IMG/VR virus record: IMGVR_UViG_3300007177_000042 | Source: a virus | Taxonomy: Duplodnaviria > Caudoviricetes | DNA: 64,000 bases | Direction: 5' to 3' (one strand) | In this document: in pieces, positions 2,895 through 63,435 of the stretch | How the letters are laid out: each line of letters starts with the position of its first letter | Numbering within the stretch: position 1 is the stretch's first letter | Translations under genes and position numbers: made by a program | The notes under the pieces: model-generated | Seen by the model: the letters and a program-made list of their open reading frames with translations, nothing else | What the model was told of the DNA's origin: nothing | Databases searched by the model: none

Positions 2895-3549
2895 ACGTTA
2901 TATTGGAATTTCAGGTGTAGCAAGATCTGGTAAAAACCTATTTTGTGACATATCAAAAAATATACTGACCGAGAAGTATGGAGTCACATGTAACTCCTAC
3001 GCATTGGCATTTTATCTAAAGAACGATTGTCGTGAGTTTATCAAAGACAAACTCGGATTGGATGTTTTCACCGAAAATACCGATGAAAAGAAAATTTTCA
3101 GAGAAATGCTTGTTTGGTATGGTGACGTAAAACGTAAACAGTCTAACGGTCGTTATTGGACGGAAAAGTTACAAGCTGATATTGAAAAGGACAATTCGGA
3201 TGTTATCTTTATTACAGACATTCGTTATGATTTTTATCCAAAAGATGAAGTATACTGGATTAAGAAAGACCTAAATGGAACTTTGATTCACGTATCCAAA
3301 TATACATATGGATTTCCTCCGGACGGTCGTCGTATTCGTAGTGATGTAGCTGACACACAACAAAAAATTTGGGTTGAACCTGCCAACGATCATGAACGTT
3401 GGAACGATCCAAAAGTTAAAGCAGCTGCAGATTATACTGTTGCGTGGCCACATATAAAATCAGATGGGAAGACATATGATGATATTGTTAGGGACGAGTA
3501 TCTTAATACATTGATTTCTCCTATTTACGAACGAATATTTGGAAAATGA
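2887..3549 (+). CDS. Deoxynucleoside monophosphate kinase (T4 gp1-like)
   Basis: P-loop IGISGVARSGKN, FREMLVWYG..KR, IFITDIRY..E. Confidence 0.8.
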   Translation: MSKRYIGISGVARSGKNLFCDISKNILTEKYGVTCNSYALAFYLKNDCREFIKDKLGLDVFTENTDEKKIFREMLVWYGDVKRKQSNGRYWTEKLQADIEKDNSDVIFITDIRYDFYPKDEVYWIKKDLNGTLIHVSKYTYGFPPDGRRIRSDVADTQQKIWVEPANDHERWNDPKVKAAADYTVAWPHIKSDGKTYDDIVRDEYLNTLISPIYERIFGK

Positions 3550-4385
3550 AAGGAATCATTCTATCAGGCGGCACTGGTTCTAGATTATATCCACTAACAA
3601 CGGTGGTCAATAAACAACTATTGCCTGTGTATGACAAACCAATGATATACTATCCTTTGTCTACACTTATATCGTGTGGGATAAAGGATATATGCATCAT
3701 TTCATCTTACGATTTTTTGCCTCTATATGAACGGTTGTTTGGCGACGGTAATAAACTTGGATTAAACTTGACATATAAAGTTCAACCAAAACCAGATGGT
3801 ATTGCCCAGTCTTTTATTATCGCTGAAGATTTTATCGGAGATGACAGTGTATCTTTGATTCTCGGTGATAATATTTTCCATGGGTTTAATCGAATGAGAG
3901 TCGATTTCACCGGTGCGGTTGTATTTGCTTACAAAGTCAATAATCCACAGGAATATGGTGTGGTTGAATTTAACGATGACGGTAAGGTTTTGTCCATTGA
4001 GGAAAAACCAACCTCACCTAAGACAAAATACGCCGTTCCTGGCCTATATTTCTACGACAACAGAGTCGTGAGTATAGCGAAACAACTAAAACCCTCTAAA
4101 CGAGGTGAACTAGAAATCACGGACATCAACCAAAAATATCTTGAAACCAACGATTTGAACGTGGTTAGGATGCCAAAAGGAACTGTTTGGCTGGATGCTG
4201 GTGTACCTTCTACTTTATCACAGGCAAGTAATTATGTACAAACAGTGCAAGAACGACAGGGGTGTAAAATAGCGTGTATTGAAGAAGATTGTTTGAATCA
4301 AGGGTTCATTGATAAAAAACAATTCAAGACGTTAATAAGCAAACTACCAAAATCGGAATATAGAACATACTTAGAATCTTTATGA
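3546..4385 (+). CDS. rmlA: Glucose-1-phosphate thymidylyltransferase
   Basis: GIILSGGTGSRLYPLT, KQLLPVYDKPMIYYPL, QPKPDGIAQSF, LILGDN, EEKP, RGELEITD, WLDAG. Confidence 0.95.
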   Translation: MKGIILSGGTGSRLYPLTTVVNKQLLPVYDKPMIYYPLSTLISCGIKDICIISSYDFLPLYERLFGDGNKLGLNLTYKVQPKPDGIAQSFIIAEDFIGDDSVSLILGDNIFHGFNRMRVDFTGAVVFAYKVNNPQEYGVVEFNDDGKVLSIEEKPTSPKTKYAVPGLYFYDNRVVSIAKQLKPSKRGELEITDINQKYLETNDLNVVRMPKGTVWLDAGVPSTLSQASNYVQTVQERQGCKIACIEEDCLNQGFIDKKQFKTLISKLPKSEYRTYLESL

Positions 4386-5248
4386 TATTATTACTTGGAT
4401 CAACGGGATATATTGGTACAGAATTTTATAGACAACTGTTTCAAAGGGGTATACCTACACGAAGTTGTACAGTACCCACAAAGGAATTGACGTTTAATCA
4501 GCTTAAAATGTTACACAAAACATTAAAATTGACAGCAGTTATTAACTGCGCTGGATATACCGGCAAACCAAACGTAGATGCTTGTGAGACTGACAAACAT
4601 AATGCGATATATGGAAACGTCGTTGTACCAGAAATGGTATCTATTTTTTGTGCTGATAACAACATCACGTTTGGACATGTATCATCTGGATGTATTTATA
4701 CGGGTCGTAGATTAGATGGACAACCATTTACAGAACATGATCGACCAAATTTTAGTTTTGAACAAAACAATTGTAGTTTTTATAGCGGAACTAAAGCTCT
4801 TGCAGAAGACATAATAAAGAAAAATGGAAACAAACATTATATATGGAGACTGCGTATACCATTTGAAGAGAAAAACAACTCTCGAAATTATTTGTCTAAA
4901 ATGTTGAATTACAAAAAACTTTTGGACGCAGAAAACTCTATATCTAATAAACAAGAATTTGTAAATGCTTGTATAGAAACATTGGTAAAAGAAGTTCCGT
5001 ATGGAATCTACAATGTTACAAACACTGGTTTTATAACCACCAAACATGTTATTCAAAAAATGCAAAATACAATCGCTAAAGACAAAGTGTTTGAATTTTT
5101 TGAAAATGAAGAAGACTTTTACAAGATCGCTGCAAAAACACCTAGATCAAATTGTGTGATGAGTAATAAAAAGTTATTGGATGCTGGTATTAAAATGCGA
5201 GATGTAGACGAAGCATTGGATTATTGTTTAACAAATTGGATCTCATGA
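4382..5248 (+). CDS. NDP-4-keto-6-deoxyglucose epimerase/reductase-like SDR (RmlD/UER1-like)
   Basis: GSTGYIG, VINCAGYTGKPNVDACE, SSGCIY, SFYSGTKALAE, RLRIPF, RNYLSKM; closer to the plant UER1/NRS-ER pattern than to canonical RmlD. Confidence 0.8.
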   Translation: MILLLGSTGYIGTEFYRQLFQRGIPTRSCTVPTKELTFNQLKMLHKTLKLTAVINCAGYTGKPNVDACETDKHNAIYGNVVVPEMVSIFCADNNITFGHVSSGCIYTGRRLDGQPFTEHDRPNFSFEQNNCSFYSGTKALAEDIIKKNGNKHYIWRLRIPFEEKNNSRNYLSKMLNYKKLLDAENSISNKQEFVNACIETLVKEVPYGIYNVTNTGFITTKHVIQKMQNTIAKDKVFEFFENEEDFYKIAAKTPRSNCVMSNKKLLDAGIKMRDVDEALDYCLTNWIS

Positions 5249-6204
5249 ACTTGCTTGTTACCGGCGGATGTGGTTTTATAGGATCACATTTTATAGATGA
5301 AATGTTAAAACGTGACAATGTATATTCCATTGTGAATGTGGATAACATGTCGTATGCAGCCAATAAACAACTTTCATTTTCAAACAATGAAAGATATCAT
5401 CACTACAGTCTGGATATTTCTAAAAATCCAATTGATTTTTTGCTAAAATCGTATCATATCACCGACATAGTACATTTTGCGGCTGAAAGTCACGTTGATA
5501 ATAGCATCAATGATAGTGATCCTTTTATACAAACAAACATCGTTGGAACACACAAACTTTTGACAGATTGTTTGAAATATTCAAAGACGACGAACATTAG
5601 GTTTATTCATGTATCAACGGACGAAGTGTTTGGAAGTTTGGACTATACAGATGAACGATTCACTGTGCGTAGTCCATATAGACCAAACAGTCCATATGCA
5701 GCCAGTAAAGCTGCAAGTGATTTATTGGTAAGAAGTTTTGTAAGAACACACAGATTTCCAGCAATCATAACCAATTGTAGCAACAATTTTGGTCCTCGAC
5801 AACATAAAGAAAAGATGATACCAACGTGCATTCGGAATTTGAGAAATAAAACTCCGATTCCACTGTACGGAACCGGAACAAATATTCGTGATTGGATTTA
5901 CGTAAAAGATCATGTAAACATGTTGGTAAAAATACTTTATCAGGGAACAATTGGAAAACAATACTTAATAGGTGGTGATAATGAGATGACCAATATCCAA
6001 TTGATTACAGCGATAAAAGAACAATATTCATTGTTAACAGGTATTGATGTTGATTGGACATGGGTAAAATATGTGAATGATCGAAAGGGTCACGATTTGC
6101 GTTATGCGATTGATAATACCGATCTCATTGCAGAGTTTGGTGATCTTAATTATAACAACTTTACAAATGCGTTAAAGCAGACTATATTGTCGTATATATC
6201 ATGA
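5245..6204 (+). CDS. rmlB: dTDP-glucose 4,6-dehydratase
   Basis: [68 protein letters not shown]; start placed at the ATGA overlap. Confidence 0.95.
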
Positions 6205-7544
6205 GTGAATTTTTTGAAATTGAATCGTCCGATAAAGAGTACAAACATAAGGTTTTAGTATGGCCAAACATTACATACTCTGAAAATCTTGAAAAAGACT
6301 CGTATGTTATTGTATTATCAAATGTTATTAAAGCATTGAAATCGGTTCGCGATGATATATTTTGGACTATTGTAACGCCTGCTCATACAAAACTGTTGCA
6401 ATATGAAAATACTGAACAACTTATTTACAAATTCCCGACTTATCCAAATACGATGCGAGTTCATTTCGATGTGGATAAAGTTGCAAATATTCTTGATGTA
6501 CATAATCAGGATTATGACATAATCTATTCTCATCTGCCAGAACATACACTACAATTGGCTAATTATATTTACAACAATGCTGGAATTCGTCCTAAAATTG
6601 TTGGATACTGTCATTGGTATGAAGTCGAAGAAAACACCGGATACAGCAAAAACGTATTTGATCTCAATATTCTAGGTACGTTGGAGATGGAACAATGTGG
6701 TGTCAACTCAAAGTGGTTGAAAGAATTGGTATTACAACGTGCCGAAAGAACATTTAGTGCAGAAGTAATAAACAAACTGAATAGAATTATTCAACCACAT
6801 TATCTATCAAGCGATAGTGATTTTGACAACACCAATAAAACGATTGATAAAAGCATATTTTTCAATCACCGACCAAATGACTATACAGGATGGAACAGTT
6901 TTGTACAAGTCATGGATAAGTTGTGGGAAAAACGACAAGATTTTACTGTATATGTGACTCTTGCTGACGAATGTCGTCCTTACATCAAACGTGTCGAGTT
7001 AGAACGAAACAAATATTTTGACTTCATCAAACAAATGCACGTCGGAGTTGGATATTTTCAGACATATAGTGCATGGTCTTTGAGTGTAACCGATGGATTA
7101 ACAAGAGGTCTTCCATATCTTCTTCCAAAGAAACTATGCTATCCTGAAATGGTTGGCCCCGACTATCCGTTATTTTACGAAAACGAGGCAGAGTTTTTGA
7201 ATAAGCTTGAGGCAGCATTGGATAATAAAAACTTCAAAGTCGATCACGCAAACGAAATGAAAGAAATCGCGGATAGTCTTAGTTATAAAAATACCGTGCT
7301 TCAATGGTTCGATGAGTGGAGTATATTTGATGAATACGAAGTAATAAAGAGAAGTAAGGCGTATACTGATATTGTTAAGTTTATTGAACAAAACAAATGT
7401 GTTTCAAAACGTGATATTCTTGATTACTTGAACTGGGGTAGACAAATATCGTTTACTCCATATCGAAATACATTGAGAGAAGATCCAAGAATCATATTGA
7501 CTAAGGATCGATACATTTTCAAGACCGAGAAAACGACCGGATAA
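6201..7544 (+). CDS. GT-B fold glycosyltransferase with a short C-terminal helical extension
   Basis: [40 protein letters not shown] resembles the GT-B donor-binding region. Confidence 0.7.
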
Positions 7545-7815
7545 TTGCGTTGTTGTGAACAAACGTAATTTTTGGTTGATCTAATACGGTAAAAAACACA
7601 TTGATATTGGCTGCTATTGTAGATGTCACCAACAATCTATATTGTGTTTCACATTCCATTTTAAGTCTGATTTTTTCTGCTTTTCGATTACACGAACACA
7701 TGTCTCTATAAGACTCGACAAGCAAAATATAATCCTTCATACCACCAATCGTATTTGAAATGGCATCATTGTTTTTAAGCAAATTGTAAAACTCCGTAAA
7801 ATTATTGATCGTCAT
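7519..7815 (-). CDS. Hypothetical protein
   Basis: ATGA-coupled to the upstream gene; last gene of the minus-strand operon. Confidence 0.6.
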
Positions 7816-8150
7816 AGAATCTTGTTCGTTATGGTAAAATATAACACCATTGATATTAAGTATTGAACACACACGGTATCGATTGTATTAAAGAAAATAG
7901 ACGATAGTATGTTAATCCAAAATCCTATACACCAAGGACACGATATCAATTTTGTAAAGAAACACGGATAAGTCGATTTTAACCAAGGAAGATATTCTAA
8001 TGTAAAATCGTTTTTGTATGCTTCTTCAAATTGGTCGATTTTGAATATCTTTGTTAACTTGAACAGTTTTGAGTATTCGATAAATGCTTCAGTATTGAAC
8101 CAAAGTATAAGTGTTACCGTCGAAAAGCATATTGTGTTTACAAAGTTCAT
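7812..8150 (-). CDS. Small membrane protein with CPWC motif (DUF1360-like)
   Basis: Hydrophobic segments and LISCPWCIGFW. Confidence 0.6.
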   Translation of the reverse strand: MNFVNTICFSTVTLILWFNTEAFIEYSKLFKLTKIFKIDQFEEAYKNDFTLEYLPWLKSTYPCFFTKLISCPWCIGFWINILSSIFFNTIDTVCVQYLISMVLYFTITNKIL

Positions 8151-9055
8151 AGGGCAGATCTGATAGTGTATTGGTTTTTGATCTGAAACTCTTGTAGGCA
8201 CCTGCCTAACGCCGCCTCAGCCTTACTCTTGAAGTTGTTTCTATCCTCAAAGTATACCACGTAGTTTTTGTATGGGTTTGACCGCAACAAATAGTTCTCT
8301 GCTACAATTATATTGTTCATCAGATATTGTTCAACGTCGATCTTGTTTAGTTTCATTATTTGCGCAGCAAACATAACATAGGTATCATCTACACCGTATG
8401 GACCCAATACGTCTGGAATATCGGTGTGAGTCAGTAAATTAGAACTGATCATGTTAAACCATCCACCACCAAACTTTATTGGATTGCATGGCATAAGATT
8501 GACCGAATCAGAGTATGATTTTCTATTTACCTCGAAATATGGGTTGATGGTTCGTTCACTGCCGTACTTGTTGTCAATAAACTGTGAATTTACCAAATGG
8601 TCCCATGTAGAATCCCATATTTTTGTTATTTGTGGAGAAACGATATAATACTTGTTGGAAATGTGTTTAGCACAATGTATAGCGTAAGCCAAAATCCCAA
8701 CGGGAAATACCAAATCAGAATCAAGATAGATGAATGCATCTACACTATTTCCGAATTTACGTACACTGTTTCGTCTTTTGTCGTTAATACCTCTACATGA
8801 ACCATAGTCATCCACGTCAAAAATATAGTTTTTTGCCCACGATGTGTGTGTTACATATTTCGTAAGCGATTCAAACTTTTCTATGAAAAACTCTTTCGGA
8901 ATTTTGGTTTGATCCCAATTTACAGTGTTTAGATTAAGAGTTACATCCAATGTAACTTCCGCAGAATCAATAACTTCTTGACTCAAAACAGTTAGTTGAC
9001 GTTCAAATTCGTCAAGTTCATGGGGTAGAAGATGTGTAACTATTTGAATTTTCAT
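8147..9055 (-). CDS. GT-A fold glycosyltransferase
   Basis: FIYLDSDLVFP DxD motif; GGGWF and GPYGVDDTYV. Confidence 0.7.
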   Translation of the reverse strand: MKIQIVTHLLPHELDEFERQLTVLSQEVIDSAEVTLDVTLNLNTVNWDQTKIPKEFFIEKFESLTKYVTHTSWAKNYIFDVDDYGSCRGINDKRRNSVRKFGNSVDAFIYLDSDLVFPVGILAYAIHCAKHISNKYYIVSPQITKIWDSTWDHLVNSQFIDNKYGSERTINPYFEVNRKSYSDSVNLMPCNPIKFGGGWFNMISSNLLTHTDIPDVLGPYGVDDTYVMFAAQIMKLNKIDVEQYLMNNIIVAENYLLRSNPYKNYVVYFEDRNNFKSKAEAALGRCLQEFQIKNQYTIRSAL

Positions 9056-10149
9056 AGGATGTGTTTCTTAAACTTATGCATAGCAGAAGATATTACCTGA
9101 TGCATATCATAATACTTATACTCAGCTAATCGACCGCCAAATATGTATTTTGAGTCTTCTGAGAATAATAATCGATATTGTTGATAACGGTGCATATTTT
9201 TTTCATCATTGATCGGATAGTATTTTTCTTTTCCACGTTCCCACGTTTGTGGAAATTCTTTTGATATAATTGTAAAGTCTTGCGTACCAAACTCAAAATG
9301 TTTGTGTTCGACAATACGAGTGTATGGAATTGATTGTTCTGTAAAGTTCATTACAGCACATCCTTGATAATCTGGTTTGTTTAATCTATATTCTTCGAAA
9401 CGAAGACTTCGATATTCAAGTTCTCCATATTTGTAATCACAAAATTCATCTAATGCACCAGTATAAACCACCTTTTTTGCTAGATTGTCCCATTTATCTT
9501 GGTTTTTCAAATAATCTTCGTTGAGGATAACATCACATCCTTCTTGCATGTTTTCCAACATACGTGTGTATCCTCCAATAGGAATGCCTTGATGACAATC
9601 ATAGAAATAGTTATCGTCAAAGTTGGTACGTATTGGTATTCTGGAAATTATGCTTTTAGGTAATTCTTTGGGTTCTCGTCCCCATTGTTTTTTAGTATAT
9701 CCATGAAAAAATTTCAAATAAATCTCTTCTCCAACCGTAGATAAAAGATGTTCCTCTAAGTTTGAAGGGTTATCAATTTTGACACGAACTTCATTTAGTT
9801 TATTTATAGCTTCTTCTGGAGTGTTGCATCCGAAGATTTGATACAATGTAAACAAATTGATCGGAAACGAGTATATTTGATTTTGATAGTTTACCTTTAC
9901 ACGATTAGTAAAGTGGTTGAATTTTGCAAATCTATTGACGTATGTCCATACGTCTGCATTGGATGTTCTAAAAATGTGAGGACCATATTTGTGGACGTTG
10001 ATGCCGTTGACATTTTCTGTGTACACGTTTCCAGCATTATGCGTCCGTTTGTCAATGATCAAACATTTTAGTCCATGTTCAGTTGCTTGTTGTGCAAAAA
10101 CACTACCAAACATACCACTACCCACTATCAAAAGGTCGTATGATTTCAT
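9052..10149 (-). CDS. glf: UDP-galactopyranose mutase
   Basis: IVGSGMFGSVFA, HKYGPHIF, YTKKQWG, QGIPIGGYT, YTRIVEHKHF, YYPIND, GRLAEYKYYDMHQ. Confidence 0.95.
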   Translation of the reverse strand: MKSYDLLIVGSGMFGSVFAQQATEHGLKCLIIDKRTHNAGNVYTENVNGINVHKYGPHIFRTSNADVWTYVNRFAKFNHFTNRVKVNYQNQIYSFPINLFTLYQIFGCNTPEEAINKLNEVRVKIDNPSNLEEHLLSTVGEEIYLKFFHGYTKKQWGREPKELPKSIISRIPIRTNFDDNYFYDCHQGIPIGGYTRMLENMQEGCDVILNEDYLKNQDKWDNLAKKVVYTGALDEFCDYKYGELEYRSLRFEEYRLNKPDYQGCAVMNFTEQSIPYTRIVEHKHFEFGTQDFTIISKEFPQTWERGKEKYYPINDEKNMHRYQQYRLLFSEDSKYIFGGRLAEYKYYDMHQVISSAMHKFKKHIL

Positions 10150-11093
10150 TTGCATAAATCAACCATCATATTTGCGTAATGTTTATATGTATTTGGTTTG
10201 TCATGTACAAACCCAGTATTTGTGTTTTTATATTTCGTAATATACGATTCTATAGCGTTAATCATTTCATCGGTGTTATTGAATGATTCGTGATCCGGAA
10301 CAGTGCTATGATTCTTTGCAAAAGTTTTCATTTGTTCTATCGGATTTAGTGCAAATACTTTTGAGTTACACATGGACGATTCCCCAAGTCTTACTGGATA
10401 CTCTAAATGTACTGGTCCAACTTGTTCGTGGAGAGTGACAATAGACCTGTTATAATAACCGATACACTCTTCTGGACTAATAAATCCGTTTCGATTATAT
10501 GTTACTTTGAATCCTCTACGTTCAAGAACATTTAGAATTTTTACGACATTTGGTCTGTTGTTGAGGGTGCCAAAATATGTAACATCAACGTCTTTGTTCA
10601 CAGATCGACGAATATTTGACTGTGCTAGAGAACATGGAATGTACATATAGAACAAATTATCCGTTAACTGATAAAGGTGTTCATTGATTTTTTTACTTTT
10701 TGCAATTTTTTTTCTGAACTCTATAACGTTGATACCCTCCAAACCATATCTTTGATATTCTGGATCGAACCCCTTTGTAAGATATTCTTCGATTACATCG
10801 TTATCGTGTAATATGCTTTTTGAACAAAGATAAAAGTTTGTTTGTGGATTTTTTGCAGCAAGTTGTTCAATATCAAATACTGACCACAAAAATACGTTTG
10901 TTATGTTTGTATATGGAATGTCGAAAAAATCTCCAGATTCTCCAAACAATACGTCTATGTATTTGTTTGAAATGTGATTTCGAAGAGGGGGTGCAAAATG
11001 ATGTGTAGATTGTATGCTCGAAAAAGCATCAATAAAGCCAGTGATTTTGTGTTTATCTCGTATCGCGATATCTCCCGTAACGGCTATTTGCAT
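10146..11093 (-). CDS. Putative GT-B glycosyltransferase
   Basis: VTYFGTLNNRP, YYNRSIVTLH, RLGESSMC resemble GT-B C-terminal lobe. Confidence 0.55.
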   Translation of the reverse strand: MQIAVTGDIAIRDKHKITGFIDAFSSIQSTHHFAPPLRNHISNKYIDVLFGESGDFFDIPYTNITNVFLWSVFDIEQLAAKNPQTNFYLCSKSILHDNDVIEEYLTKGFDPEYQRYGLEGINVIEFRKKIAKSKKINEHLYQLTDNLFYMYIPCSLAQSNIRRSVNKDVDVTYFGTLNNRPNVVKILNVLERRGFKVTYNRNGFISPEECIGYYNRSIVTLHEQVGPVHLEYPVRLGESSMCNSKVFALNPIEQMKTFAKNHSTVPDHESFNNTDEMINAIESYITKYKNTNTGFVHDKPNTYKHYANMMVDLCK

Positions 11094-11839
11094 AAAATTG
11101 AGTTTCTTTCTTTTGTTATAAGCACCGAATAACTATTAGATTTGTAATATACTTGATTTGATATATTTCCAAACGAATCTATTTTTTGAAGTACGTTTTC
11201 AATATAGTCCGTTGTTACATATAATTGTTCTAATGACTCGGGAACAAACGATAACTGGTTCAGAAGATCATTTCTAACCAATATTGCATTACCTGTATAG
11301 CAAACCATTTTATACCCTTTTGTTTGTGCTAATTTTGATACGGATAAAATAGAACATCCACCTGAAGATTTGAATTCTTGATCCACAGTATAGTTACTAT
11401 TTGTTTCTATTAGAACAATTTTTGGACGAAATTTGTTCATTGATTCAAATATCAAACAGTCGCAGGAGTCTACATCTATCGACATCAAACAAAATTCGTC
11501 ATCCGTCAAGTTAAATTTCGATTTTGTGAGAATGTTATCTATCGAATTGTTGTGATTTATGTCTGGTTCAATAAATGCGTTGATACATTCTATGTTTTTA
11601 TTTTTTGATGATAGATCGTTTAAATCCACACATCGAGATTTGTTTCCTTCGATCAATATCGCATTAAATCTCTGATCTTTCCATAAGTTAAATACGTTAC
11701 TCAAATATATGCCGTCCCATGCTCCAAATTCAACAACGACTCCATTAGAAATGTGTAATTCTTTAAACAACTGTTCTATAATACCGTCTTCTCCATTCTG
11801 AGAAAAAACGTTTTTTGCATATTTAATGTATCCATTCAT
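11084..11839 (-). CDS. FkbM-like SAM methyltransferase
   Basis: FSQNGEDGII, VVEFGAWDG..LSN, LMSIDVD. Confidence 0.8.
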   Translation of the reverse strand: MNGYIKYAKNVFSQNGEDGIIEQLFKELHISNGVVVEFGAWDGIYLSNVFNLWKDQRFNAILIEGNKSRCVDLNDLSSKNKNIECINAFIEPDINHNNSIDNILTKSKFNLTDDEFCLMSIDVDSCDCLIFESMNKFRPKIVLIETNSNYTVDQEFKSSGGCSILSVSKLAQTKGYKMVCYTGNAILVRNDLLNQLSFVPESLEQLYVTTDYIENVLQKIDSFGNISNQVYYKSNSYSVLITKERNSILCK

Positions 11840-11842
11840 AGT

Positions 11843-12550
11843 TTATATTTTGATGTATTCCACAGACGGAACGACAAAAAATTTTGTTTTCATTTGATAA
11901 TCATACCAACTTTCGTTAGTATTTGGTTTGATATGTGACGACATTATACAGATTTGTTTGAAATTTTGGTTAATATGTCGAATGGACGATGCCAACATAT
12001 GAGGTCCTGAATTTAAAGAAACAAAAGTATGACAACAGTTGATCAAGTCAACATATGTAGTAAGATCCGGTACCTCAATGTATTCAAATCCAAATGTTAA
12101 TCCGGAAGAATTTTTGTTTACAATCAATTTGACATTTGTATATGTTGACTTTATGTATTTTACAACACGGTCTATATCATATGATACGGTAATAGATCCC
12201 AAATCAATTAACACATCAATGTTTGATATATCGTTTTTTGGTTGATAGTATATCTTTGGAAAGCTGTTTTTTGGAACCAATCCATGAATATATTCCCAGT
12301 TTTTGATAAAATCATCGAATCGATTTTCGTATGATCTTCCGGGAATATCTCCCAATGTCCATTTGACATCTGATTGCCCTTTTATGTATGGATTTTTATC
12401 CCATACTATGGATCTTGTTGATGCGCTTCGAAACGGTGCGTCGTTGGTAAGAAACACCTCATGACCCTGTTCATGAAAACGTTCTGGTAAAGTGGAGAAT
12501 TGCAGCGTGTCACCTAGTCCACCAAAATAAGATTTGATTCCGTGTATCAT
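11843..12550 (-). CDS. GT9 (heptosyltransferase)-like glycosyltransferase
   Basis: GLGDTLQFSTLP and FVSLNSGPHMLA. Confidence 0.6.
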   Translation of the reverse strand: MIHGIKSYFGGLGDTLQFSTLPERFHEQGHEVFLTNDAPFRSASTRSIVWDKNPYIKGQSDVKWTLGDIPGRSYENRFDDFIKNWEYIHGLVPKNSFPKIYYQPKNDISNIDVLIDLGSITVSYDIDRVVKYIKSTYTNVKLIVNKNSSGLTFGFEYIEVPDLTTYVDLINCCHTFVSLNSGPHMLASSIRHINQNFKQICIMSSHIKPNTNESWYDYQMKTKFFVVPSVEYIKI

Positions 12551-13155
12551 GACCCAAAAATAAAACCCAATTGGTAGTTTTCAAAAATAGGAGATTTTCC
12601 AATTTGTGCCATAAATTCCTTTATCAGATATCCTTTGGCCATACTATCTTTATTTATATGATCGTCTATAACGATAAGTGTATGTGGTTGTAAATTCTTC
12701 ATGATCGCACAAAGTTCTTTCAGATGATGAATTTGTGACGGCATTGGGTTTTTTGTATCCAAATCAAATGAGTCGAGATAAACCATATCTACTTTTTCTT
12801 TGTATCCCCAAAGAAATGGAATTGAGTCTGAACATATTATGTTTGATTTTTTACTCACTTTAGAACGAGCATGTGAACAGTTTTTTTCGTTTATATCCAC
12901 TGAAGTAAAACTTCCACCATGTACATTTATAAATTGATCAAACAAAAAGGAGCTACATCCATCGTCACCAAAGGCCATATCACCGTGATCCGAACGCATG
13001 ACGCCAGTCTCCAAGATTACCGGGTTTGATATTTTCTCCAAATATTCAAATATAAACTGAAAGTTATCACCTCTGTTACGTATTGGATTGGAAGGATGTC
13101 CCGGTTTGAACATCAACGGATAATATGTAGATTTAAACGTCTCTGAAAATTTCAT
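12547..13155 (-). CDS. Class I SAM methyltransferase (Methyltransf_24-like)
   Basis: ILETG, VDIN, SDSIPFL, DMVYLDS, IVIDD. Confidence 0.75.
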   Translation of the reverse strand: MKFSETFKSTYYPLMFKPGHPSNPIRNRGDNFQFIFEYLEKISNPVILETGVMRSDHGDMAFGDDGCSSFLFDQFINVHGGSFTSVDINEKNCSHARSKVSKKSNIICSDSIPFLWGYKEKVDMVYLDSFDLDTKNPMPSQIHHLKELCAIMKNLQPHTLIVIDDHINKDSMAKGYLIKEFMAQIGKSPIFENYQLGFIFGS

Positions 13156-13961
13156 GGTAAATATAGGTTTTGGTTTCGTTTGGGACCACAGATCAAATCA
13201 CGATGTCGAGATAATACAATTTTTGAATTTTTGAAATTGGACATCAACAACCATTTTTTGGGTCTGTTGTTTTCTCTTGTACCACCCCACACATCTTGTG
13301 ATTCAAAATCGATCCAATAACATCCGGATTTGTATCCTTTTTTAAACGCTCTATAACACAAATCATGATCATCCATATCCTGTGGAGAAAATGATTCATC
13401 AAAATAATTCAATTCTTGTAAGACGCTGTGTTTCAACAATAACGGTCCTCGATTGACAGAATCACGCATAGCGAACGTGTTTCGATCTATATTTCTTCTA
13501 TCTGCGTGATCTGTGTGAAACAAAATATCGGCCCAATCGTTTCCGTGAAATTCTGATACATGTACATCTTTTGATTGAGGATTCAAAATCCAATTGTGAG
13601 CCATTCTGGCCGTTACCGCAAACACATCTCCGAACGTGTATATCGGTTTTAACATTCGTATGTTCCATCCGTGTTCCTTGACAATCATATCATCTTGAAC
13701 AATGATAATATGATCTCCGTCACTATTTTTTGCAGCCAAATTGTTTGCTTGTGTTTCGAATACATTTGGGGCATATAGTTTTTTTGTTTTTATGGATGGG
13801 TTGGATAACATGAACCGATCTACAATAGATTCAGATTCATCAGTACAACCATCTAGTACAATTACAAGTTCGTATGGACCGACTGTATTTTCTTTAATAC
13901 CATCGAGAACACGTTGTAAAAGAAACCCTTTGTTATGAACCGTTAAATTTACACTCAGCAT
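13152..13961 (-). CDS. GT2 glycosyltransferase
   Basis: LTVHNK, VIVLDGCTD, IIVQDDM, YFDESF..QDMDDHDLCYRA. Confidence 0.85.
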   Translation of the reverse strand: MLSVNLTVHNKGFLLQRVLDGIKENTVGPYELVIVLDGCTDESESIVDRFMLSNPSIKTKKLYAPNVFETQANNLAAKNSDGDHIIIVQDDMIVKEHGWNIRMLKPIYTFGDVFAVTARMAHNWILNPQSKDVHVSEFHGNDWADILFHTDHADRRNIDRNTFAMRDSVNRGPLLLKHSVLQELNYFDESFSPQDMDDHDLCYRAFKKGYKSGCYWIDFESQDVWGGTRENNRPKKWLLMSNFKNSKIVLSRHRDLICGPKRNQNLYLP

Positions 13962-13962
13962 A

Positions 13963-14637
13963 TTATTTCACGTCATTTACATTACATTTTACAAAACATC
14001 GCAATATACTAGGAAAGTATTGTTTGTTGTGTTTTATTATTAAATTTGATAGTACACTCTGATCATATCTGTGATCGACATATTCTGGTAAGTTAGGAAG
14101 ACCACAAACATTTGGATCGTCAGTGATAATACGTGCATCTTTACAATATCCAAGCCATTCTGATATAAAATCTTTGGATTCGTCGGTATTTTTAAATGCA
14201 CATATACCAGCTTCACATTGAATTTCGTCCCAATAATGATGTGAGTCACAGTTCATATAATAAAAGGTATCTCGTTTTGTATACATTTTATTTTTGAATG
14301 AACCTTTTAGAAACAACATTGATGGACTTGTCATGTTTTCTTTTATAACGTCGATTGCCTCTCCAGTGTATATGTCTGCACAATCGATATAAAACACAAC
14401 ATCTCCATGTGGTATTTGGGTTAACGCATCCAATATAATGTGTGGTTTCCACAGACAAAACCCACTCCCTCGTTCTCTATCCAAAATTGTTTTGTTTTCG
14501 GCATAAAACGACGTAGTTTTTAATTGATCAAACGTGTATGTAAAGGTATTCAAATTTAACGATTTTGAATATTCTTTCAAATTCATTTGATGATCTGTGT
14601 ATTTGTAATTTGAAAATGTAACAACGTGTATGTTCAT
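13963..14637 (-). CDS. Putative GT-A glycosyltransferase
   Basis: GFCLWKPHII, VFYIDCAD, HRYDQSVLS. Confidence 0.6.
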   Translation of the reverse strand: MNIHVVTFSNYKYTDHQMNLKEYSKSLNLNTFTYTFDQLKTTSFYAENKTILDRERGSGFCLWKPHIILDALTQIPHGDVVFYIDCADIYTGEAIDVIKENMTSPSMLFLKGSFKNKMYTKRDTFYYMNCDSHHYWDEIQCEAGICAFKNTDESKDFISEWLGYCKDARIITDDPNVCGLPNLPEYVDHRYDQSVLSNLIIKHNKQYFPSILRCFVKCNVNDVK

Positions 14638-14638
14638 A

Positions 14639-20562: not shown

Positions 20563-20563
20563 A

Positions 20564-20788
20564 TTATGTTTGTTCAGATGCAACAGAAGTAATCACAGAT
20601 TGACTCTCTGGAGACAATTGTGATATCTGGTGGTTATAAATTTGATCTCTAAAGTTGGTATCATTTACAAACAGATGTAGCGATTTGTTCACTAAATCTT
20701 GTAAATAAAACTTCTTTGAAGACGATAGTTGTTTGAATTGTTCGTAGATTTCTTTATCTACTTTTACGCTTGTTAACGATTTTGACAT
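20564..20788 (-). CDS. Putative ribbon-helix-helix DNA-binding protein
   Basis: LTSVKVDKEIYEQFKQLS...LQDLVNKSLHLFV fits the strand-helix-helix pattern; first gene of the glycan operon. Confidence 0.55.
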   Translation of the reverse strand: MSKSLTSVKVDKEIYEQFKQLSSSKKFYLQDLVNKSLHLFVNDTNFRDQIYNHQISQLSPESQSVITSVASEQT

Positions 20789-39925: not shown

Positions 39926-39930
39926 CAGAT

Positions 39931-42025: not shown

Positions 42026-42038
42026 TGGATGATATAGA

Positions 42039-52721: not shown

Positions 52722-52731
52722 TATATATGTA
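52722..52731 (+). promoter_or_regulatory. TATATATGTA box upstream of gmd
   Basis: TATATATGTATTG is a 13-nt match to the site upstream of 20788. Confidence 0.4.
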
Positions 52732-52763: not shown

Positions 52764-53972
52764 ATGGAATCACTGAACATTAAAGAAACCCTACATGGTA
52801 AAAAAATTGACACCGCCAACATCCTAAATATCTCGGAAGCAAGAGCTTTGAGAGACGAATTTGTAAAGAATTCTGTGTCTGACACTGACTTTGAAAATAA
52901 AGTCGTTGTGATAACAGGTGTAACCGGACAAGATGGTAGTTATATGGTAGACTATCTTTTGAAAAATACCAAAGCATTGATTTTCGGTGGTGTACGCAGA
53001 CTGAGTGTGTACAATCATAAAAATCTCTCACATATCAAAAACAAGCGGTTTAATTTGGTCAATTTTGATCTTACTGATGCCCACTCTATTGGGGCTCTAG
53101 TAGAACAGGTAAAACCCGACTACTTTATTAATTTTGCTGCACAAAGTTTTGTAGCAAGTAGCTGGGACTTTGCTCGCCAAACATGGCAAACCAATAGTAC
53201 AGCTGTATTAGATATTTTGGAAGCTATTCGACAGTACAAACCCAATTGTAGGTTTTATAACGCTGGATCATCCGAGGAGTTTGGTAATGTTGCCTACAGT
53301 CCGCAAGACGAAAAGCATCCACTACGTCCTCGTAGTCCATATGGAGCAAGCAAAGCCGCTGCCCGTCAAGTGGTGAAGGTTTATAGAGAGAGTTATAACC
53401 TATACGCAATTCAGAGTTGGTTATTTAACCATGAGGGGCCTAGACGAGGTGAAGAGTTCGTTACACGAAAAATTACAAAAGGTGTAGCTCGTATAGCATA
53501 TTGTATTAAAAATAACATTCCTTTTCATCCAATTGAGTTGGGAAACGTATATGCACAAAGAGATTGGAGCGACAGCGAAGACTTTGTTGAATGTGTATGG
53601 ATGATGTTAAACCAAGATGTTTATCGAAAAGACAAATCAGAAATCAAGGAATATGTGTTGAGTAGCAATGAAACTCATACAATTAAAGAGTTTGTGGAAA
53701 AAGCATTTACAATAGCTGGAATAAATGGTGTATGGCATGGTGAAGGATTGAATGAGGAATTTTCTGTATCTACGGAAGATGCTATACGACTTGACATTCC
53801 CTCATCTGTGTTGGTAAAAATCAATAGTAATTTTTATCGCCCAGCCGAAGTAGAATTGCTTTTGGGTGATAGTACATTGTTTAGAAATGATTTTCAATGG
53901 AAACCAAAAACCAGTTTCAATAATTTGGTGACCAAAATGGTTATGTCAGATTTAAAAGAACTTGGCTTATGA
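52764..53972 (+). CDS. gmd: GDP-mannose 4,6-dehydratase with N-terminal extension
   Basis: ITGVTGQDGSY, NFAAQSFV..SW, RFYNAGSSE, PRSPYGASK, FNHEGPRRGEEFVTRKIT, RDW, FYRPAEVELLLGD. Confidence 0.95.
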   Translation: MESLNIKETLHGKKIDTANILNISEARALRDEFVKNSVSDTDFENKVVVITGVTGQDGSYMVDYLLKNTKALIFGGVRRLSVYNHKNLSHIKNKRFNLVNFDLTDAHSIGALVEQVKPDYFINFAAQSFVASSWDFARQTWQTNSTAVLDILEAIRQYKPNCRFYNAGSSEEFGNVAYSPQDEKHPLRPRSPYGASKAAARQVVKVYRESYNLYAIQSWLFNHEGPRRGEEFVTRKITKGVARIAYCIKNNIPFHPIELGNVYAQRDWSDSEDFVECVWMMLNQDVYRKDKSEIKEYVLSSNETHTIKEFVEKAFTIAGINGVWHGEGLNEEFSVSTEDAIRLDIPSSVLVKINSNFYRPAEVELLLGDSTLFRNDFQWKPKTSFNNLVTKMVMSDLKELGL

Positions 53973-54367: not shown

Positions 54368-54370
54368 GAT

Positions 54371-55045: not shown

Positions 55046-55981
55046 ATGAAAAAGAAAGCCTACGTATTGTTTGCTGTAGGACAGTCGTATATCAATAAGA
55101 TTGAATCGTTGGTAGAACACCTGTTGAAGTATTCTACCAACGACATTCTTTTGTATTATTCAGAAGGCGCTGTAGATTATAAACACGAACGACTACACTC
55201 TATCTATATTGCTATACCTTATTTGATTGATTTCAACATTCCCGGTCATAAACCTACATCAGTACGAAACTTGTATTTGATGACATACAAGCCTGACATC
55301 TGTAAACACGCAATATTAAACACCCGATATGATGAGTTTTTGTATTTAGATTCGGATGTGTTACCAACACCAAACATTGATTTGGTGTTGAACGAATGGT
55401 CACAACAATGTACCAACTATCCACTGTATAGCAGATATCCTACTGATAACTGCTATATTGATGATCGTCCGTTAGTTCTTGATAAAGTTCTACATATGCT
55501 CGGAATTGACCGCAGCAGAAAGTCAACATTTGAATTGTGTGCTGGATTTTTCTTTTTCAACAAACAGTGTCTATCGTTTATTGAACATTGGATCACTTTT
55601 GTTCATAGTAAAGAATACACAGACTCGTTTGTATTACCAAATTCAACTGGAAACATTGACCTTTGTCATTATTCAGACGAGGGAGCAGCCAATGCGTTAC
55701 TTTGGTATTATGGATACAATCGGTTTATTGGACCGATGGTATGGACTGGACAGGGGGAGTGTGTCAAGTATGTATTGACAACGAATTATGAACCAGAATC
55801 GGTTGTAGTACATCCCGAAGACAATGTTGCGTATATTAGAATACCAAATGCTTATGCCGATCCGTATACACGAAATATTTCATATTTTCCTGTGGATAGG
55901 TCTAGGTTATTTGCATTCCACGGAATAAAAAACCAAGAGGATTATATCAAAGGATTGAGATATGTTGACAAGTTTTACTGA
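55046..55981 (+). CDS. GT-A fold glycosyltransferase-like protein
   Basis: YKP, FLYLDSDVLP, CAGFFFF, DEGAAN, FHG. Confidence 0.6.
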   Translation: MKKKAYVLFAVGQSYINKIESLVEHLLKYSTNDILLYYSEGAVDYKHERLHSIYIAIPYLIDFNIPGHKPTSVRNLYLMTYKPDICKHAILNTRYDEFLYLDSDVLPTPNIDLVLNEWSQQCTNYPLYSRYPTDNCYIDDRPLVLDKVLHMLGIDRSRKSTFELCAGFFFFNKQCLSFIEHWITFVHSKEYTDSFVLPNSTGNIDLCHYSDEGAANALLWYYGYNRFIGPMVWTGQGECVKYVLTTNYEPESVVVHPEDNVAYIRIPNAYADPYTRNISYFPVDRSRLFAFHGIKNQEDYIKGLRYVDKFY

Positions 55982-58090: not shown

Positions 58091-58750
58091 TCACAGTATA
58101 TATGGCAATAGTATTTCTTCAGGATTGCCGGTGAATATGTAGTGGAGATTATATTCGATTATCCGGCTACTTACGTATGATGCATGTCTGTTAAAACAGT
58201 TGATATCACCAATATATAGTTCTCTGTCTATGTTTGTGGTTTCTAACCATTTCAAAATTCGTTCATAAAATGGTTTAGAATGACGCAGGATCGACGATTT
58301 TGAAACCATAAACTGTCCATAACCCAAAAACGTCAAAGTGTCAGGCATAACCAACTCCGACGTAAAGATGTCAGACCAATTACGAGTCATCCACAAATCA
58401 AAACTTTTGCGATAATCGTTTTCAATATCTTCAAAGTCATAGATTTTACTGAAATATTGTTCTTCATACCGCCTGGTATTCACATTTACATAGTCTAATG
58501 ACCAATTTAGATTATTTGCAATGTACCACCCCGGATAATCTTGATGATGTGACGTTTCATGGGCATGCAGAACCAATATTCTGTCTGGAAGACAATAATA
58601 GTGATCCACAATAAACTTCATGGTAGACCAATGTTCCAATCCAACATTTATAGATTGTTTTGTTTTGTCAAAAAAATACGTTTCGTGAACAATTTTACTT
58701 GCCCATGAAACGTTTTCGTTGAAGTGTGTTATTAAAACAATCTTAGTCAC
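58091..58750 (-). CDS. DUF3431-like protein (GT-related)
   Basis: NVGLE, FIVDHY..LPD..LVLHAH, GQFMVSKSSI..HSKPFY, EYNLHYIF. Confidence 0.75.
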   Translation of the reverse strand: MTKIVLITHFNENVSWASKIVHETYFFDKTKQSINVGLEHWSTMKFIVDHYYCLPDRILVLHAHETSHHQDYPGWYIANNLNWSLDYVNVNTRRYEEQYFSKIYDFEDIENDYRKSFDLWMTRNWSDIFTSELVMPDTLTFLGYGQFMVSKSSILRHSKPFYERILKWLETTNIDRELYIGDINCFNRHASYVSSRIIEYNLHYIFTGNPEEILLPYIL

Positions 58751-60538: not shown

Positions 60539-60539
60539 T

Positions 60540-62550: not shown

Positions 62551-62562
62551 ATTAGTCTCTAC

Positions 62563-62591: not shown

Positions 62592-62597
62592 CTTTTT

Positions 62598-62632
62598 GCA
62601 AAATAAATGCCAGCATAGTTTTATGCTGGCAT
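62598..62632 (-). terminator. Intrinsic terminator
   Basis: 11-bp stem ATGCCAGCATA/TATGCTGGCAT with 4-nt loop, followed on the minus strand by TTATTTT. Confidence 0.8.
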
Positions 62633-62661
62633 ACGTTGTTTGAGTTGAAAATTGTATTATA

Positions 62662-63435
62662 TCAACTATACGTTTTATTATCGGTTTTCGTATAGGATAT
62701 TGAAGTTGGTTCTTTTGTTACACCGTTTTCTAAAAATGAAAAACTGTAACTATACTTTCCGATGTGAGCCAATCTAATTGTTGTATCACAATACAGTGTG
62801 ATACCAGCTTTTCTTAATCGATGACAAAATGCAAAATCTTCTCCAAGATACTCGTCGTTGTGTAGGATAGGATAAAAATATGGATAGACTTCGTATTGAC
62901 CACCCCAGATTTTTACTCGTTTCATTTTTTCATTAGAAACGATTGCATCATATACGCTTCGGTGGGTATACATAAACCCCGTGGCAGCATAAACCACTTC
63001 ATATAATCCACCCTTTTCACCAAGAATAACTTTTTTATCAACGAATTCGGTGGTTAATGCTGGCCAACCCTTGACACTATATGGGGCACTTACAAATTTT
63101 AGACCCGATCTAACAACCTTTTCAACATCGTAAGGCCAAAATGCTACATCTGCATCAATCCAAACTATATGTTCAAATCCATCATCCAATGCTTCTTGTG
63201 CCATTGCACAACGACCTTGATCAATTGCACTAAAACCGTATTTTCTACGAACCGTGTAACCAAACGACTCCAATTTTCGTAATGATTCATCAACAGCGGG
63301 TTCGATACTATGTGCAACGGGTACCAAAATAACAACCGAGTTGGGTTTTACCGGTTGTTCAAACATCGTTGTTATTTTTGCTTTTTTAGATGTTCGCAAT
63401 TTTTGAAATAATCCAATAATATAATCTATGATCAT
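62662..63435 (-). CDS. GT-A fold glycosyltransferase-like protein
   Basis: IDQGR..MA, IVWIDADV, ATGF, GEDFAFC, LAHIG. Confidence 0.75.
   Translation of the reverse strand: MIIDYIIGLFQKLRTSKKAKITTMFEQPVKPNSVVILVPVAHSIEPAVDESLRKLESFGYTVRRKYGFSAIDQGRCAMAQEALDDGFEHIVWIDADVAFWPYDVEKVVRSGLKFVSAPYSVKGWPALTTEFVDKKVILGEKGGLYEVVYAATGFMYTHRSVYDAIVSNEKMKRVKIWGGQYEVYPYFYPILHNDEYLGEDFAFCHRLRKAGITLYCDTTIRLAHIGKYSYSFSFLENGVTKEPTSISYTKTDNKTYS

Follow-up and report, generated by a model that had tools for sequence, protein, structure and literature searches.

Why would a tailed bacteriophage carry, among its replication genes, enough enzymes to build and methylate a complex glycan, and to what would that glycan be attached? 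The question is raised by a 64,000-nucleotide stretch (hereafter the window) of the IMG/VR virus record IMGVR_UViG_3300007177_000042, corresponding to bases 41,754–105,753 of a 171,680-bp record (hereafter the parent record). An original prediction from the letters of the window described approximately 22 glycosyltransferase (GT)-like genes, seven methyltransferases and several nucleotide-sugar pathways, and proposed that the phage may assemble a methylated glycan autonomously, for the virion coat or for the surface of the infected cell. From its gene content, we interpret the phage as encoding a self-contained cytoplasmic glycosylation system with up to approximately 23 soluble GT-A/GT-B GTs, approximately seven methyltransferases and a GH130-like enzyme. 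The proposal that we favour, and to which we give about an even chance, is that this system serves mainly to glycosylate virion proteins in the cytoplasm, with a methylated glycan that varies between strains.

The record comes from an uncultured freshwater jumbo myovirus and is a genuine phage. Upstream of the window, it encodes a 1112-aa tail sheath, a tape measure, a UvsX recombinase, a DnaB/gp41-like helicase and ribonucleotide reductase. Within the window, the glycan genes are interleaved with PolB, a clamp-like gene, a clamp loader, dUTPase, ThyA, a PD-(D/E)XK nuclease, a SNF2 helicase and UvdE, and most open reading frames (ORFs) are chained with overlaps of 1–30 nt; the ORF calls and Pfam agree with the predicted arrangement of overlapping glycan operons among T4-type replication genes. 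ClpP and a 640-aa protein bearing a lysozyme domain are also encoded. PolB is a T4-type family B polymerase with 2,677 phage matches, the best of which is to Microcystis phage Mel-JY01 at 42%, and a megablast search of 20 kb against 50,697 phage records returned no match. The CheckV completeness of the parent record is 49%, and relatives of 49–134 kb are rated 15–43% complete; because these ratings give the same genome size, the full genome is probably approximately 340 kb, that of a jumbo myovirus, and the parent record is approximately half of it (the visible half below).

GC content stays at 0.32–0.38 along the entire window, which contains no tRNAs. Gene order, including that of the glycan genes, is collinear with three 95–134-kb relatives, and the 22-kb PolB neighbourhoods are syntenic across 17 IMG/VR contigs. 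A 9.9-kb piece of the minus-strand glycan block recurs in 20 runs belonging to 11 metagenome studies (freshwater, aquaculture, estuary and lagoon), and contigs from run X1 cover, at >99% identity, the places where glycan genes adjoin replication genes. The nearest bacterial homologues of the UDP-galactopyranose mutase, Glf, are 51–59% identical, and the best 80 are mostly from Bacteroidota. The probable host is a member of the Bacteroidota; the Glf relatives and the 35% GC fit this assignment and do not prove it.

Among the 83 ORFs called in the window, 74 were scanned against Pfam and approximately 30 against PHROGs or NCBIfam. With all candidates taken together, glycan-related ORFs span approximately 33.6 kb, or 52% of the window, as predicted. 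Nine GT-type proteins exceed Pfam cut-offs (two GT2, one GT11, two GT4, one GT25, one GT32, one DUF5672 and one DUF3431). Pfam thus confirmed the predicted families GT2, GT4, GT11, GT25 and GT32, together with the GH130-like enzyme, and a match to GT9, which had also been named, was found only outside the window. When Pfam, Atlas or fold evidence is accepted, 14 GTs in the window are well supported, counting the DUF5672 and DUF3431 proteins, whose GT role is suspected, and the 171 kb hold at least 19. All four Pfam-negative ORFs that were sampled proved GT-like (6201–7544, 8147–9055, 10146–11093 and 55046–55981), and approximately nine further candidates were recognized from weak matches or DXD-type motifs, including those starting at 11843, 13963, 14639, 25896, 34706, 40623, 41360 and 62662; the predicted total of approximately 22 is therefore plausible, with up to approximately 23 GTs credible. 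Of the seven methyltransferases, three are firm (35326, 37238 and 39341), two have sub-threshold Pfam matches (12547 and 42039) and two were identified by motif (11084 and 29298). PHROGs added almost nothing for 20 Pfam-negative ORFs, and PDB sequence and profile searches produced no match for ORFs 6201, 17176 and 55046 or for parent record 620–3097.

The window also encodes the predicted enzymes for dTDP-rhamnose, UDP-galactofuranose and GDP-6-deoxyhexose, of which RmlA and Glf pass NCBIfam equivalog cut-offs, whereas RmlB and Gmd score below theirs. No RmlC (dTDP_sugar_isom domain) was found in the 171-kb record. The product of 4382..5248 was considered as an RmlD and rejected because it matches PDB entries 4QQR, a plant 3,5-epimerase/4-reductase, and 7JID, a UDP-L-rhamnose synthase, better than any bacterial RmlD (28–44 bits against bacterial RmlD PDB entries; TIGR01214 rmlD 79.6 against a cut-off of 224). 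Judged by these matches, the predicted bifunctional enzyme stands in for RmlC and RmlD, and the rhamnose route is complete in three genes. A fusion of a HAD domain to a sugar-1-phosphate nucleotidyltransferase, conserved up to 90% in relatives, points to one further nucleoside diphosphate (NDP)-sugar, the kind of which is unassigned.

Conservation of the glycan genes is bimodal, with a clade-wide core on the one hand and two variable stretches on the other. The genes kept clade-wide are the nuclease at 20837, a split GT-B, dUTPase, the GT-B at 17176, GT2, GT11 and the GT-A candidate at 14639, together with the rml genes, the GT-B at 6201, Gmd and the HAD–nucleotidyltransferase fusion; some core genes match PolB in conservation. 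The order nuclease, GT-B, GT-B, GT2 recurs in Flavobacterium phage immuto and Microcystis phage Mel-JY01, both of them cultured and with widely differing hosts (Flavobacterium sp. LMO8 and the cyanobacterium Microcystis elabens, respectively). The GT-B at 17176 is 57–82% identical in relatives, 41% identical to an immuto GT and 39% to its Mel-JY01 counterpart. The split GT-B consists of an N-domain ORF (20020–20583, 187 aa) and a C-domain ORF (19049–20029, 326 aa), both of which match a single 480-aa gene in immuto, and it is likewise two ORFs in Mel-JY01. After the 480-aa gene, immuto encodes aminotransferases, an epimerase, a methyltransferase and further GTs. The DID and GPED motifs of the candidate at 14639 are invariant in eight homologues; its AlphaFold2 model, built from that eight-sequence alignment, had a predicted local distance difference test score (pLDDT) of 52, too poor to search.

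The variable stretches differ between strains that are otherwise nearly identical, with 98–99% identity in the flanks. At hot spot 1, run X5 covers the flanks with zero depth inside, and loose ends fall at 9057 and 14796. The cassette (9.1–14.8 kb) contains Glf, a GT-B, methyltransferase candidates and a GT2, and among the relatives compared its genes were found only in the closest (G002). At hot spot 2, depth in runs X5, X8 and X10 is zero at approximately 32.6–36.0 kb and near zero to 37.8 kb, and joints link 38535 to 40297 and 40626 to 42286. Its genes, which are patchy among relatives, comprise the C-terminal two thirds of a 1045-aa protein, methyltransferases, GH130, GT25, GT32, DUF5672 and others. 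For the 1045-aa protein (31572), a three-module reading was rejected and the GT4 module alone confirmed; its C-terminal two thirds, a region absent in other strains, had no PDB match. In a more distant relative, a GT8, an oxidoreductase and a methyltransferase follow the GT core. In our comparison, this cassette exchange looks like that of bacterial surface-antigen loci, and exchange at strain level implies diversifying selection on glycan structure.

The strongest indication of an acceptor lies 36–41 kb upstream of the window, where three consecutive GT genes stand between the end of a tail-fibre gene and the 1112-aa sheath (region at parent record 620–9432). TibC is an O-glycosyltransferase that acts in the cytoplasm on serines of a beta-helical protein; it belongs, with AAH of E. 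coli, to the BAHT family, which forms a dodecameric ring and uses ADP-heptose as donor (PMC4358343). Residues 341–689 of the second protein of the trio align by phmmer with residues 26–386 of the 406 of TibC (PDB: 4RAP) at an E value of 4.6e-67 and 230 bits, whereas the same query reaches an E value of 0.09 against the lipopolysaccharide (LPS) heptosyltransferase WaaF. The catalytic Asp110 of TibC and its four iron-finger cysteines (C339, C342, C358 and C370; roles from PMC4358343) are all aligned and identical in the phage module. On this similarity, we consider the enzyme to be protein-directed. The tail-fibre gene at the contig start encodes, as read by eye, collagen-like repeats and a chaperone-type end, and the N-terminal 620 aa of the sheath are an extension with 21.6% Ser/Thr; the fibre and the Ser/Thr-rich extension are candidate acceptors. 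The trio is kept together with the sheath in relatives, a TibC-like module is fused within a 1226-aa protein next to a structural gene in Mel-JY01, and a full-length homologue of the module occurs in a 735-kb huge phage. DNA as the acceptor of the core is disfavoured by immuto, which carries a homologous core and whose virion DNA gave dA, dC, dT and the formylated deazaguanine fdPreQ1, with no glycosylated nucleoside, by liquid chromatography with UV and mass spectrometric detection (PMC10516641).

We therefore propose the following scheme, in which we infer the acceptor, the order of action and the benefit. The phage would make its own dTDP-L-rhamnose, UDP-galactofuranose, GDP-6-deoxyhexose and one further NDP-sugar, and the glycan would be built within the infected cell, straight onto a soluble acceptor that most likely consists of structural proteins of the phage. 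Its inner part would be made by the conserved core (nuclease, two GT-B, GT2 and GT11), and the GT, methyltransferase and sugar-pathway cassettes of the hot spots would set the outer, partly O-methylated sugars, giving serotype-like variation. The original prediction is partly supported: an unusually large, largely self-sufficient machinery with no membrane, lipid-carrier or export component is upheld, the virion option gains from the TibC-type trio and the immuto nucleosides, and remodelling of the infected-cell surface is retained as an unlikely outcome.

Several observations weigh against glycosylation of virion proteins as the main function. The TATTTATA motif precedes structural genes, and sigma70-like TTGACA-N17-TAnnnT pairs precede nucleotide-metabolism genes; the glycan units of the window lack TATTTATA and are co-oriented and overlapping with replication and nucleotide genes, which suggests expression earlier than that of the virion genes. 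The TibC-like gene lies outside the window, may serve the tail alone and is silent on the targets of the approximately 20 GTs in the window, and the capsid genes are in the half of the genome outside the parent record. The immuto argument draws on homologues that are 37–54% identical and on a nucleoside analysis not designed for sugars. In addition, the assignment is weak for approximately nine GTs and four methyltransferases.

One alternative is that the soluble phage GTs act on undecaprenyl-linked intermediates of the host, using its initiating enzyme and exporters, so that LPS, capsule, exopolysaccharide or a Bacteroidota O-glycan is altered and superinfection or re-adsorption of progeny is blocked. 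Large T4-like cyanophages carry LPS-like genes for which such a role has been proposed. We consider this unlikely, even though O-antigen GTs are as a rule soluble or peripheral and the gene content (GT2, GT4, GT11, GT25, GT32, Rml, Glf and Gmd) is like that of an O-antigen or capsule locus. Swapping of cassettes between strains is typical of surface-antigen loci, the Glf relatives are from Bacteroidota, and a small membrane protein (7812–8201) and a secreted-looking Ser/Thr-rich protein (21792–22559) are encoded beside the glycan blocks. In cyanophage S-SCSM1, 13 such genes were read by the authors as serving cell-wall modification (PMC9602691). However, no initiating transferase (Bac_transf or WecA-type Glycos_transf_4 domain), flippase, polymerase, ligase or ABC exporter was found in the visible 171 kb, so a surface polymer would depend wholly on host carriers and exporters. 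The only polytopic membrane protein detected in the 171-kb record was the tape measure, Wzx, Wzy and ABC-type components had no Pfam match among the 74 window proteins scanned, and the proteins of the glycan units have weak hydrophobic segments at most. Across phages of hosts as unlike as Flavobacterium and Microcystis, conservation of the core GTs equals that of PolB, which is hard to square with a need for host-specific lipid-linked intermediates. The visible part shows no sign of lysogeny, which leaves a short window for a surface change, and the TibC-type enzyme is, by its homology, protein-directed.

A second alternative, which we rate as equally improbable, is hypermodification of the phage DNA. 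A plus-strand unit comprising a clamp-loader subunit, a P-loop kinase, RmlA, the epimerase-reductase, RmlB and the GT-B at 6201, perhaps with the GT-B core, would add sugar at or behind the replication fork, with protection from restriction and other DNA-targeting defences, and the hot-spot cassettes would diversify the DNA glycan. T4 and RB69 protect their DNA by glycosylation. Each glycan unit forms a chain with replication or nucleotide genes, and one GT in the window matches the Pfam family GT4-conflict. Enzymes known to transfer arabinosyl or hexosyl groups to DNA are GT-B proteins of the GT4-like type, accompanied by phage NDP-sugar genes, including Glf in RL38J1 (PMC13326640).

The GT-B at 6201 supplies a further argument for a DNA acceptor. 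It has no Pfam match and no PDB sequence match; at least 1,163 homologues were found, the nearest Atlas clusters are all viral, and no homologue was found in 50,697 deposited phage genomes. The protein starts with M-S-E-F-F-E, and all 117 full-length homologues start with an FFE- or IFDF-type peptide. PolB ends in ...FFxF in this phage and 16 relatives, a tail that we take to resemble the clamp-binding tail of the RB69 and T4 polymerases. FF[DE][FILVM] occurs eight times in the proteome, in protein termini in half of the cases, and the terminal FF(D/E)x is a candidate sliding-clamp motif. A complex prediction for the putative clamp (28553–29296) with residues 1–40 of the GT-B gave a score so close to nil that it speaks neither for nor against binding. 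One or two DruA-like (DUF4338) genes accompany the GT-B (parent record 40569–41753; loci L031–L034), and in relatives, where the second DruA-like gene holds the place of the rml genes, the GT-B sits by DruA-like, UvdE and dUTPase-family genes without them. The terminal peptide was also noticed at the C terminus of a 133-aa ORF after PolB and at the N terminus of a DruA-like protein (FF(D/E)x sites at window 6201–6230, 25470–25494 and 25880–25899 and parent record 40569–40610).

What speaks against a DNA acceptor, besides the immuto nucleosides, is the lack of an enzyme to make the acceptor base. Changes diagnostic of thymidylate synthases that make 5-hydroxymethyl- or 5-hydroxy-pyrimidines are N177D, D169N and those at L143 (PMC13326640). 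The only thymidylate-synthase homologue (61429–62550, minus strand) passes the ThyA equivalog cut-off and keeps C146, L143, D169 and N177; it is approximately 100 aa longer than E. coli ThyA, with an insert at residues 227–266, and its active-site residues are canonical. A role as hydroxymethylase or hydroxylase was rejected on these diagnostic residues. The dUTPase is canonical (NCBIfam), and the visible half contains no TET/JBP, C5-methyltransferase (DNA_methylase) or T4 glucosyltransferase domain and no enzyme found to make an acceptor base, dCTPase included. The known DNA glycans contain, to our knowledge, one to three sugars and no O-methylation, and approximately 20 GTs and seven methyltransferases are far more than these would need; the gene number far exceeds that of any known DNA glycosylation system, and in the original prediction it seemed well beyond the requirement of a single DNA modification. 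That both acceptors are used, with a variable methylated coat on the virion and rhamnose or another sugar added to DNA by a clamp-tethered family of GT-Bs like that at 6201, in the absence of a hydroxymethyl- or hydroxy-pyrimidine pathway, seems very unlikely to us.

A giant eukaryotic virus, considered because of the DUF5672, DUF3431, GT32 and NRS/ER-type genes, is ruled out by the tail sheath, tape measure, T4-type replication genes and overlapping operons, and a chimera with a host polysaccharide locus, for which the assembly was checked, by the even GC, the collinear gene order in the survey of relatives (17 loci), the independent metagenomes and bacterial Glf identities of at most 59%.

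Table 1. Positions of glycan-related and associated features, in window coordinates unless the parent record is named (MTase, methyltransferase; SAM, S-adenosylmethionine; TM, template modelling score)
Feature	Position	Strand	Evidence or remark
RmlA, glucose-1-phosphate thymidylyltransferase	3546..4385	+	Pfam NTP_transferase 207.9 bits; TIGR01207 389.9 vs cut-off 360.65
Predicted NRS/ER-type bifunctional 3,5-epimerase/4-reductase	4382..5248	+	PDB 4QQR 98 bits, 7JID 58 bits
dTDP-glucose 4,6-dehydratase RmlB	5224..6204	+	Pfam GDP_Man_Dehyd/Epimerase; TIGR01181 347 bits vs cut-off 365
447-aa GT-B (GT4-like), N-terminal FF(D/E)x peptide	6201..7544	+	Atlas neighbours Glycos_transf_1 clusters, 0.95–0.99
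Small hydrophobic protein closing minus-strand glycan block	7812..8201	-	Weak DUF1360; hydrophobic segments by eye; kept in relatives
GT-A fold GT (GT2/GT7C-like)	8147..9055	-	Atlas features 0.97–0.99; structure TM 0.59–0.67 to GT2 clusters
UDP-galactopyranose mutase Glf	9052..10155	-	Pfam GLF 254.8 bits; TIGR00031 363.8 vs cut-off 303.75
Hot spot 1: cassette absent or replaced in strain with 98–99% identical flanks	9057..14796	.	Contigs of run X5 aligned to the window
GT-B fold GT	10146..11093	-	Atlas features 0.96; TM 0.56–0.68 to Glyco_trans_1_2, GT1 and GT47-like clusters
Candidate FkbM-like MTase	11084..11839	-	Glycine-rich SAM-type motif by eye; weak GT-D match, 16 bits
Candidate GT9-like protein	11843..12550	-	N-terminal GGLGD motif by eye; no database match
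Probable MTase	12547..13155	-	Methyltransf_24 20 bits, below cut-off; phrog_24975 E 1.8e-48
GT2	13152..13961	-	Pfam 44.2 bits vs 23.3
Candidate GT-A	13963..14637	-	DXD-type motif by eye
Conserved candidate GT-A (GT7C-like)	14639..15703	-	Weak Glyco_transf_7C; phrog_15655 E 3.6e-67
GT11 (alpha-1,2-fucosyltransferase family)	15700..16518	-	Pfam 88.5 bits
GT2, clade-wide core member	16520..17179	-	Pfam 49.7 bits; homologues Mel-JY01 34%, immuto 42%
437-aa GT-B, most conserved GT	17176..18489	-	Glycos_transf_1 23.3 bits, below cut-off; paralogue of 31572, phmmer E 4.5e-14
Canonical dUTPase within GT core	18492..19052	-	Pfam 120.7 bits; NF001862 132.8 vs 103
GT4-type GT-B, two overlapping ORFs	19049..20583	-	Glycos_transf_1 44.4, GT4-conflict 29.4 bits
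PD-(D/E)XK nuclease heading core	20837..21742	-	Pfam 71.8 bits; syntenic in immuto and Mel-JY01
Conserved candidate GT just after PolB	25896..26672	+	Weak Glyco_transf_15; phrog_13607
HAD (beta-phosphoglucomutase-like) + sugar-1-phosphate nucleotidyltransferase fusion	26679..28040	+	HAD_2 104.7, NTP_transferase 41.2 bits; NCBIfam
Candidate MTase between clamp and clamp loader	29298..29831	+	Motif by eye
1045-aa protein, N-terminal GT4 module + ~670 aa unassigned	31572..34709	+	Glycos_transf_1 39.1 bits, residues 197–335; paralogues
Hot spot 2: near-identical strains differ in a mosaic of retained and absent genes	32563..42286	.	Runs X5, X8, X10
Candidate GT32-like GT-A	34706..35344	+	DYD motif in GT32-like context, by eye
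SAM MTase	35326..35877	+	Methyltransf_11 39.6 bits
GH130-like enzyme (beta-mannoside phosphorylase family)	35874..37241	+	Pfam 31.6 bits vs 26; weak NCBIfam mannobiose phosphorylase
SAM MTase	37238..37867	+	Methyltransf_24 36.5 bits; weak RMNT_CmcI (rhamnosyl O-methyltransferase/CmcI)
GT25	37864..38535	+	Pfam 79.5 bits
GT32 (DXD sugar-binding region)	38532..39344	+	Gly_transf_sug 36.0 bits
SAM MTase	39341..39925	+	Methyltransf_12 36.6, Methyltransf_25 35.0 bits
Minus-strand unit: DUF5672 protein, two candidate GT-A, probable MTase	39931..42590	-	Partly deleted in other strains
DUF5672 protein	39931..40626	-	DUF5672 77.3 bits
Two candidate GT-A proteins	40623–41432, 41360–42025	-	DXD motifs by eye
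Probable MTase	42039–42590	-	Methyltransf_24 21.6 bits
GDP-mannose 4,6-dehydratase Gmd	52764..53972	+	Pfam 329 bits; TIGR01472 315 vs cut-off 415; kept in three relatives
GT-A fold GT (GT6/GT8-like)	55046..55981	+	AlphaFold2 pLDDT 82.7; Foldseek probability the maximum, TM 0.43–0.54; invariant DSD motif
DUF3431 protein, suspected GT-like	58091..58750	-	Pfam 68.8 bits
Candidate GT-A	62662..63435	-	phrog_1574 E 1.3e-18, weak glycosyltransferase phrog; DAD motif by eye
825-aa GT4	parent record 620–3097		First of GT trio
692-aa protein, GT4 module + TibC-like module	parent record 3094–5172		Second of GT trio
274-aa paralogue of TibC-like module	parent record, after 3094–5172		Third of GT trio

The remaining features lie beside these genes. 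The top Foldseek matches of the GT-A fold protein at 55046..55981 were GT6 blood-group and alpha-3-GalT enzymes and LgtC. Beyond the window, parent record 120428–123022 and 158737–160107 encode two GT2 proteins, of which one has TPR repeats, and a 456-aa GT4 that is paralogous to the 1045-aa protein. Directly after Gmd, 53969–55027 (plus strand) encodes a VWA-domain protein and an iron-sulfur scaffold of the IscU/NifU_N type (164.7 bits); iron would also be required by the TibC-like enzyme. The 147-aa ORF after the HAD fusion (28056–28499, plus strand) has an HRG start like that of glycerophosphodiester phosphodiesterases, is 57–64% conserved and has no database match, and a 226-aa ORF at 59645–60325 (minus strand), with no Pfam match, carries the GGS...DxD pattern typical of nucleotidyltransferase-fold proteins. 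Transcribed divergently from the nuclease–GT block and kept in relatives, 21792–22559 (plus strand) encodes a 255-aa protein with a clear signal peptide, 23.5% Ser/Thr and weak FecR/DUF4402 matches, which may act as a factor outside the cell or in the periplasm, or may itself accept glycan. A TATATATGTA box is present in four copies in 171 kb, compared with approximately 2.4 expected from base composition, and all are in the window (20801–20810, 42624–42633 and 51003–51012 on the minus strand; 52722–52731 on the plus strand). Three of the four lie 0–35 nt upstream of glycan units, which is suggestive of a link to these units and not significant by count.

If our interpretation is correct, a bacteriophage rivals giant viruses in building a complex methylated glycan alone and varies it between otherwise identical strains, as bacteria vary O-antigens. 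This would constitute an unrecognized layer of conflict between the phage and its host or environment, on the phage surface or on its DNA, and sugar-coated virions could alter adsorption, stability, grazing and immune recognition in a clade that is widespread, as the 11 metagenome studies indicate. Because the core is present in cultured immuto and Mel-JY01, the question is already open to laboratory tests. As a source of enzymes, the locus is compact and offers a rhamnose route of three genes, a TibC-type protein glycosyltransferase from a phage and numerous GTs outside the known classes.

Clusters of phage GT genes are already known from mycobacteriophages, large cyanophages and moraphages. 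In mycobacteriophages, glycosylation of capsid and tail proteins takes place in the cytoplasm, the GT genes are adjacent to structural genes and shielding has been proposed (Freeman et al. 2023, as cited in PMC12619734); that summary gives 2–4 GT genes and no donor pathways, whereas this phage has at least 14 GTs in the window (at least 19 in the 171 kb), together with several donor pathways, methyltransferases and cassettes that vary between strains. Cyanophages S-SCSM1, P-SSM2 and S-SSM7 (PMC9602691) are similar in carrying Gmd, fucosyltransferases, GTs and a dTDP-glucose dehydratase in a lytic myovirus. They belong to another phage lineage and have approximately 13 such genes compared with 35–40 here, with no methyltransferase set, TibC-like enzyme or reported cassette swapping (PMC9602691). 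The moraphages are freshwater jumbo phages of Bacteroidota with genomes of 200–307 kb and four core GT orthogroups (PMC12619734). By description, they share with this phage the freshwater origin, jumbo size (approximately 340 kb here), probable Bacteroidota host and GTs among the core genes, but here DnaK was not found in the visible half, and the T4-type replication set is rich.

The DNA glycosylation systems (glucosylated hydroxymethylcytosine in T4, polyarabinosylated 5-hydroxycytosine in RB69 and DLP3, and hexosylated 5-hydroxycytosine in RL38J1; PMC13326640) also combine GT4-like GT-B enzymes with NDP-sugar genes, including a mutase, a nucleotide kinase by the GTs and linkage to replication genes. 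They differ from this locus, in the visible half of which no hydroxy- or hydroxymethyl-pyrimidine synthase or dCTPase was found, ThyA and dUTPase are canonical, and GTs and methyltransferases are far more numerous. The phage TibC-like module aligns over nearly the full length of TibC and keeps the catalytic Asp and the four iron-finger cysteines. Unlike TibC and AAH, it is fused behind a GT4 module, lies between tail-fibre and sheath genes and has no autotransporter substrate; TibC and AAH use ADP-heptose, which may not exist in the probable host of this phage.

Autonomous glycosylation, with clade-specific gene clusters, is established for giant viruses of algae and amoebae, in the capsid N-glycans of chloroviruses and the fibril glycans of Mimivirus and the Megavirinae (PMC9614988, PMC10117803, PMC8456856). 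As in those viruses, NDP-sugar pathways and many soluble GTs are virus-encoded here, independent of host secretory and membrane machinery, and the likeness extends to an NRS/ER-type rhamnose enzyme, methyltransferase candidates and lineage-variable gene sets. In contrast to giant viruses, this is a tailed phage of a bacterium, known from its genes alone, with overlapping prokaryotic operons among T4-type replication genes. What is new compared with all these systems is the scale of the GT set, a three-gene rhamnose route of the plant and mimivirus type in a phage, a TibC-family enzyme in a tail cluster, a GT core common to cultured phages and the exchange of cassettes at the level of strains.

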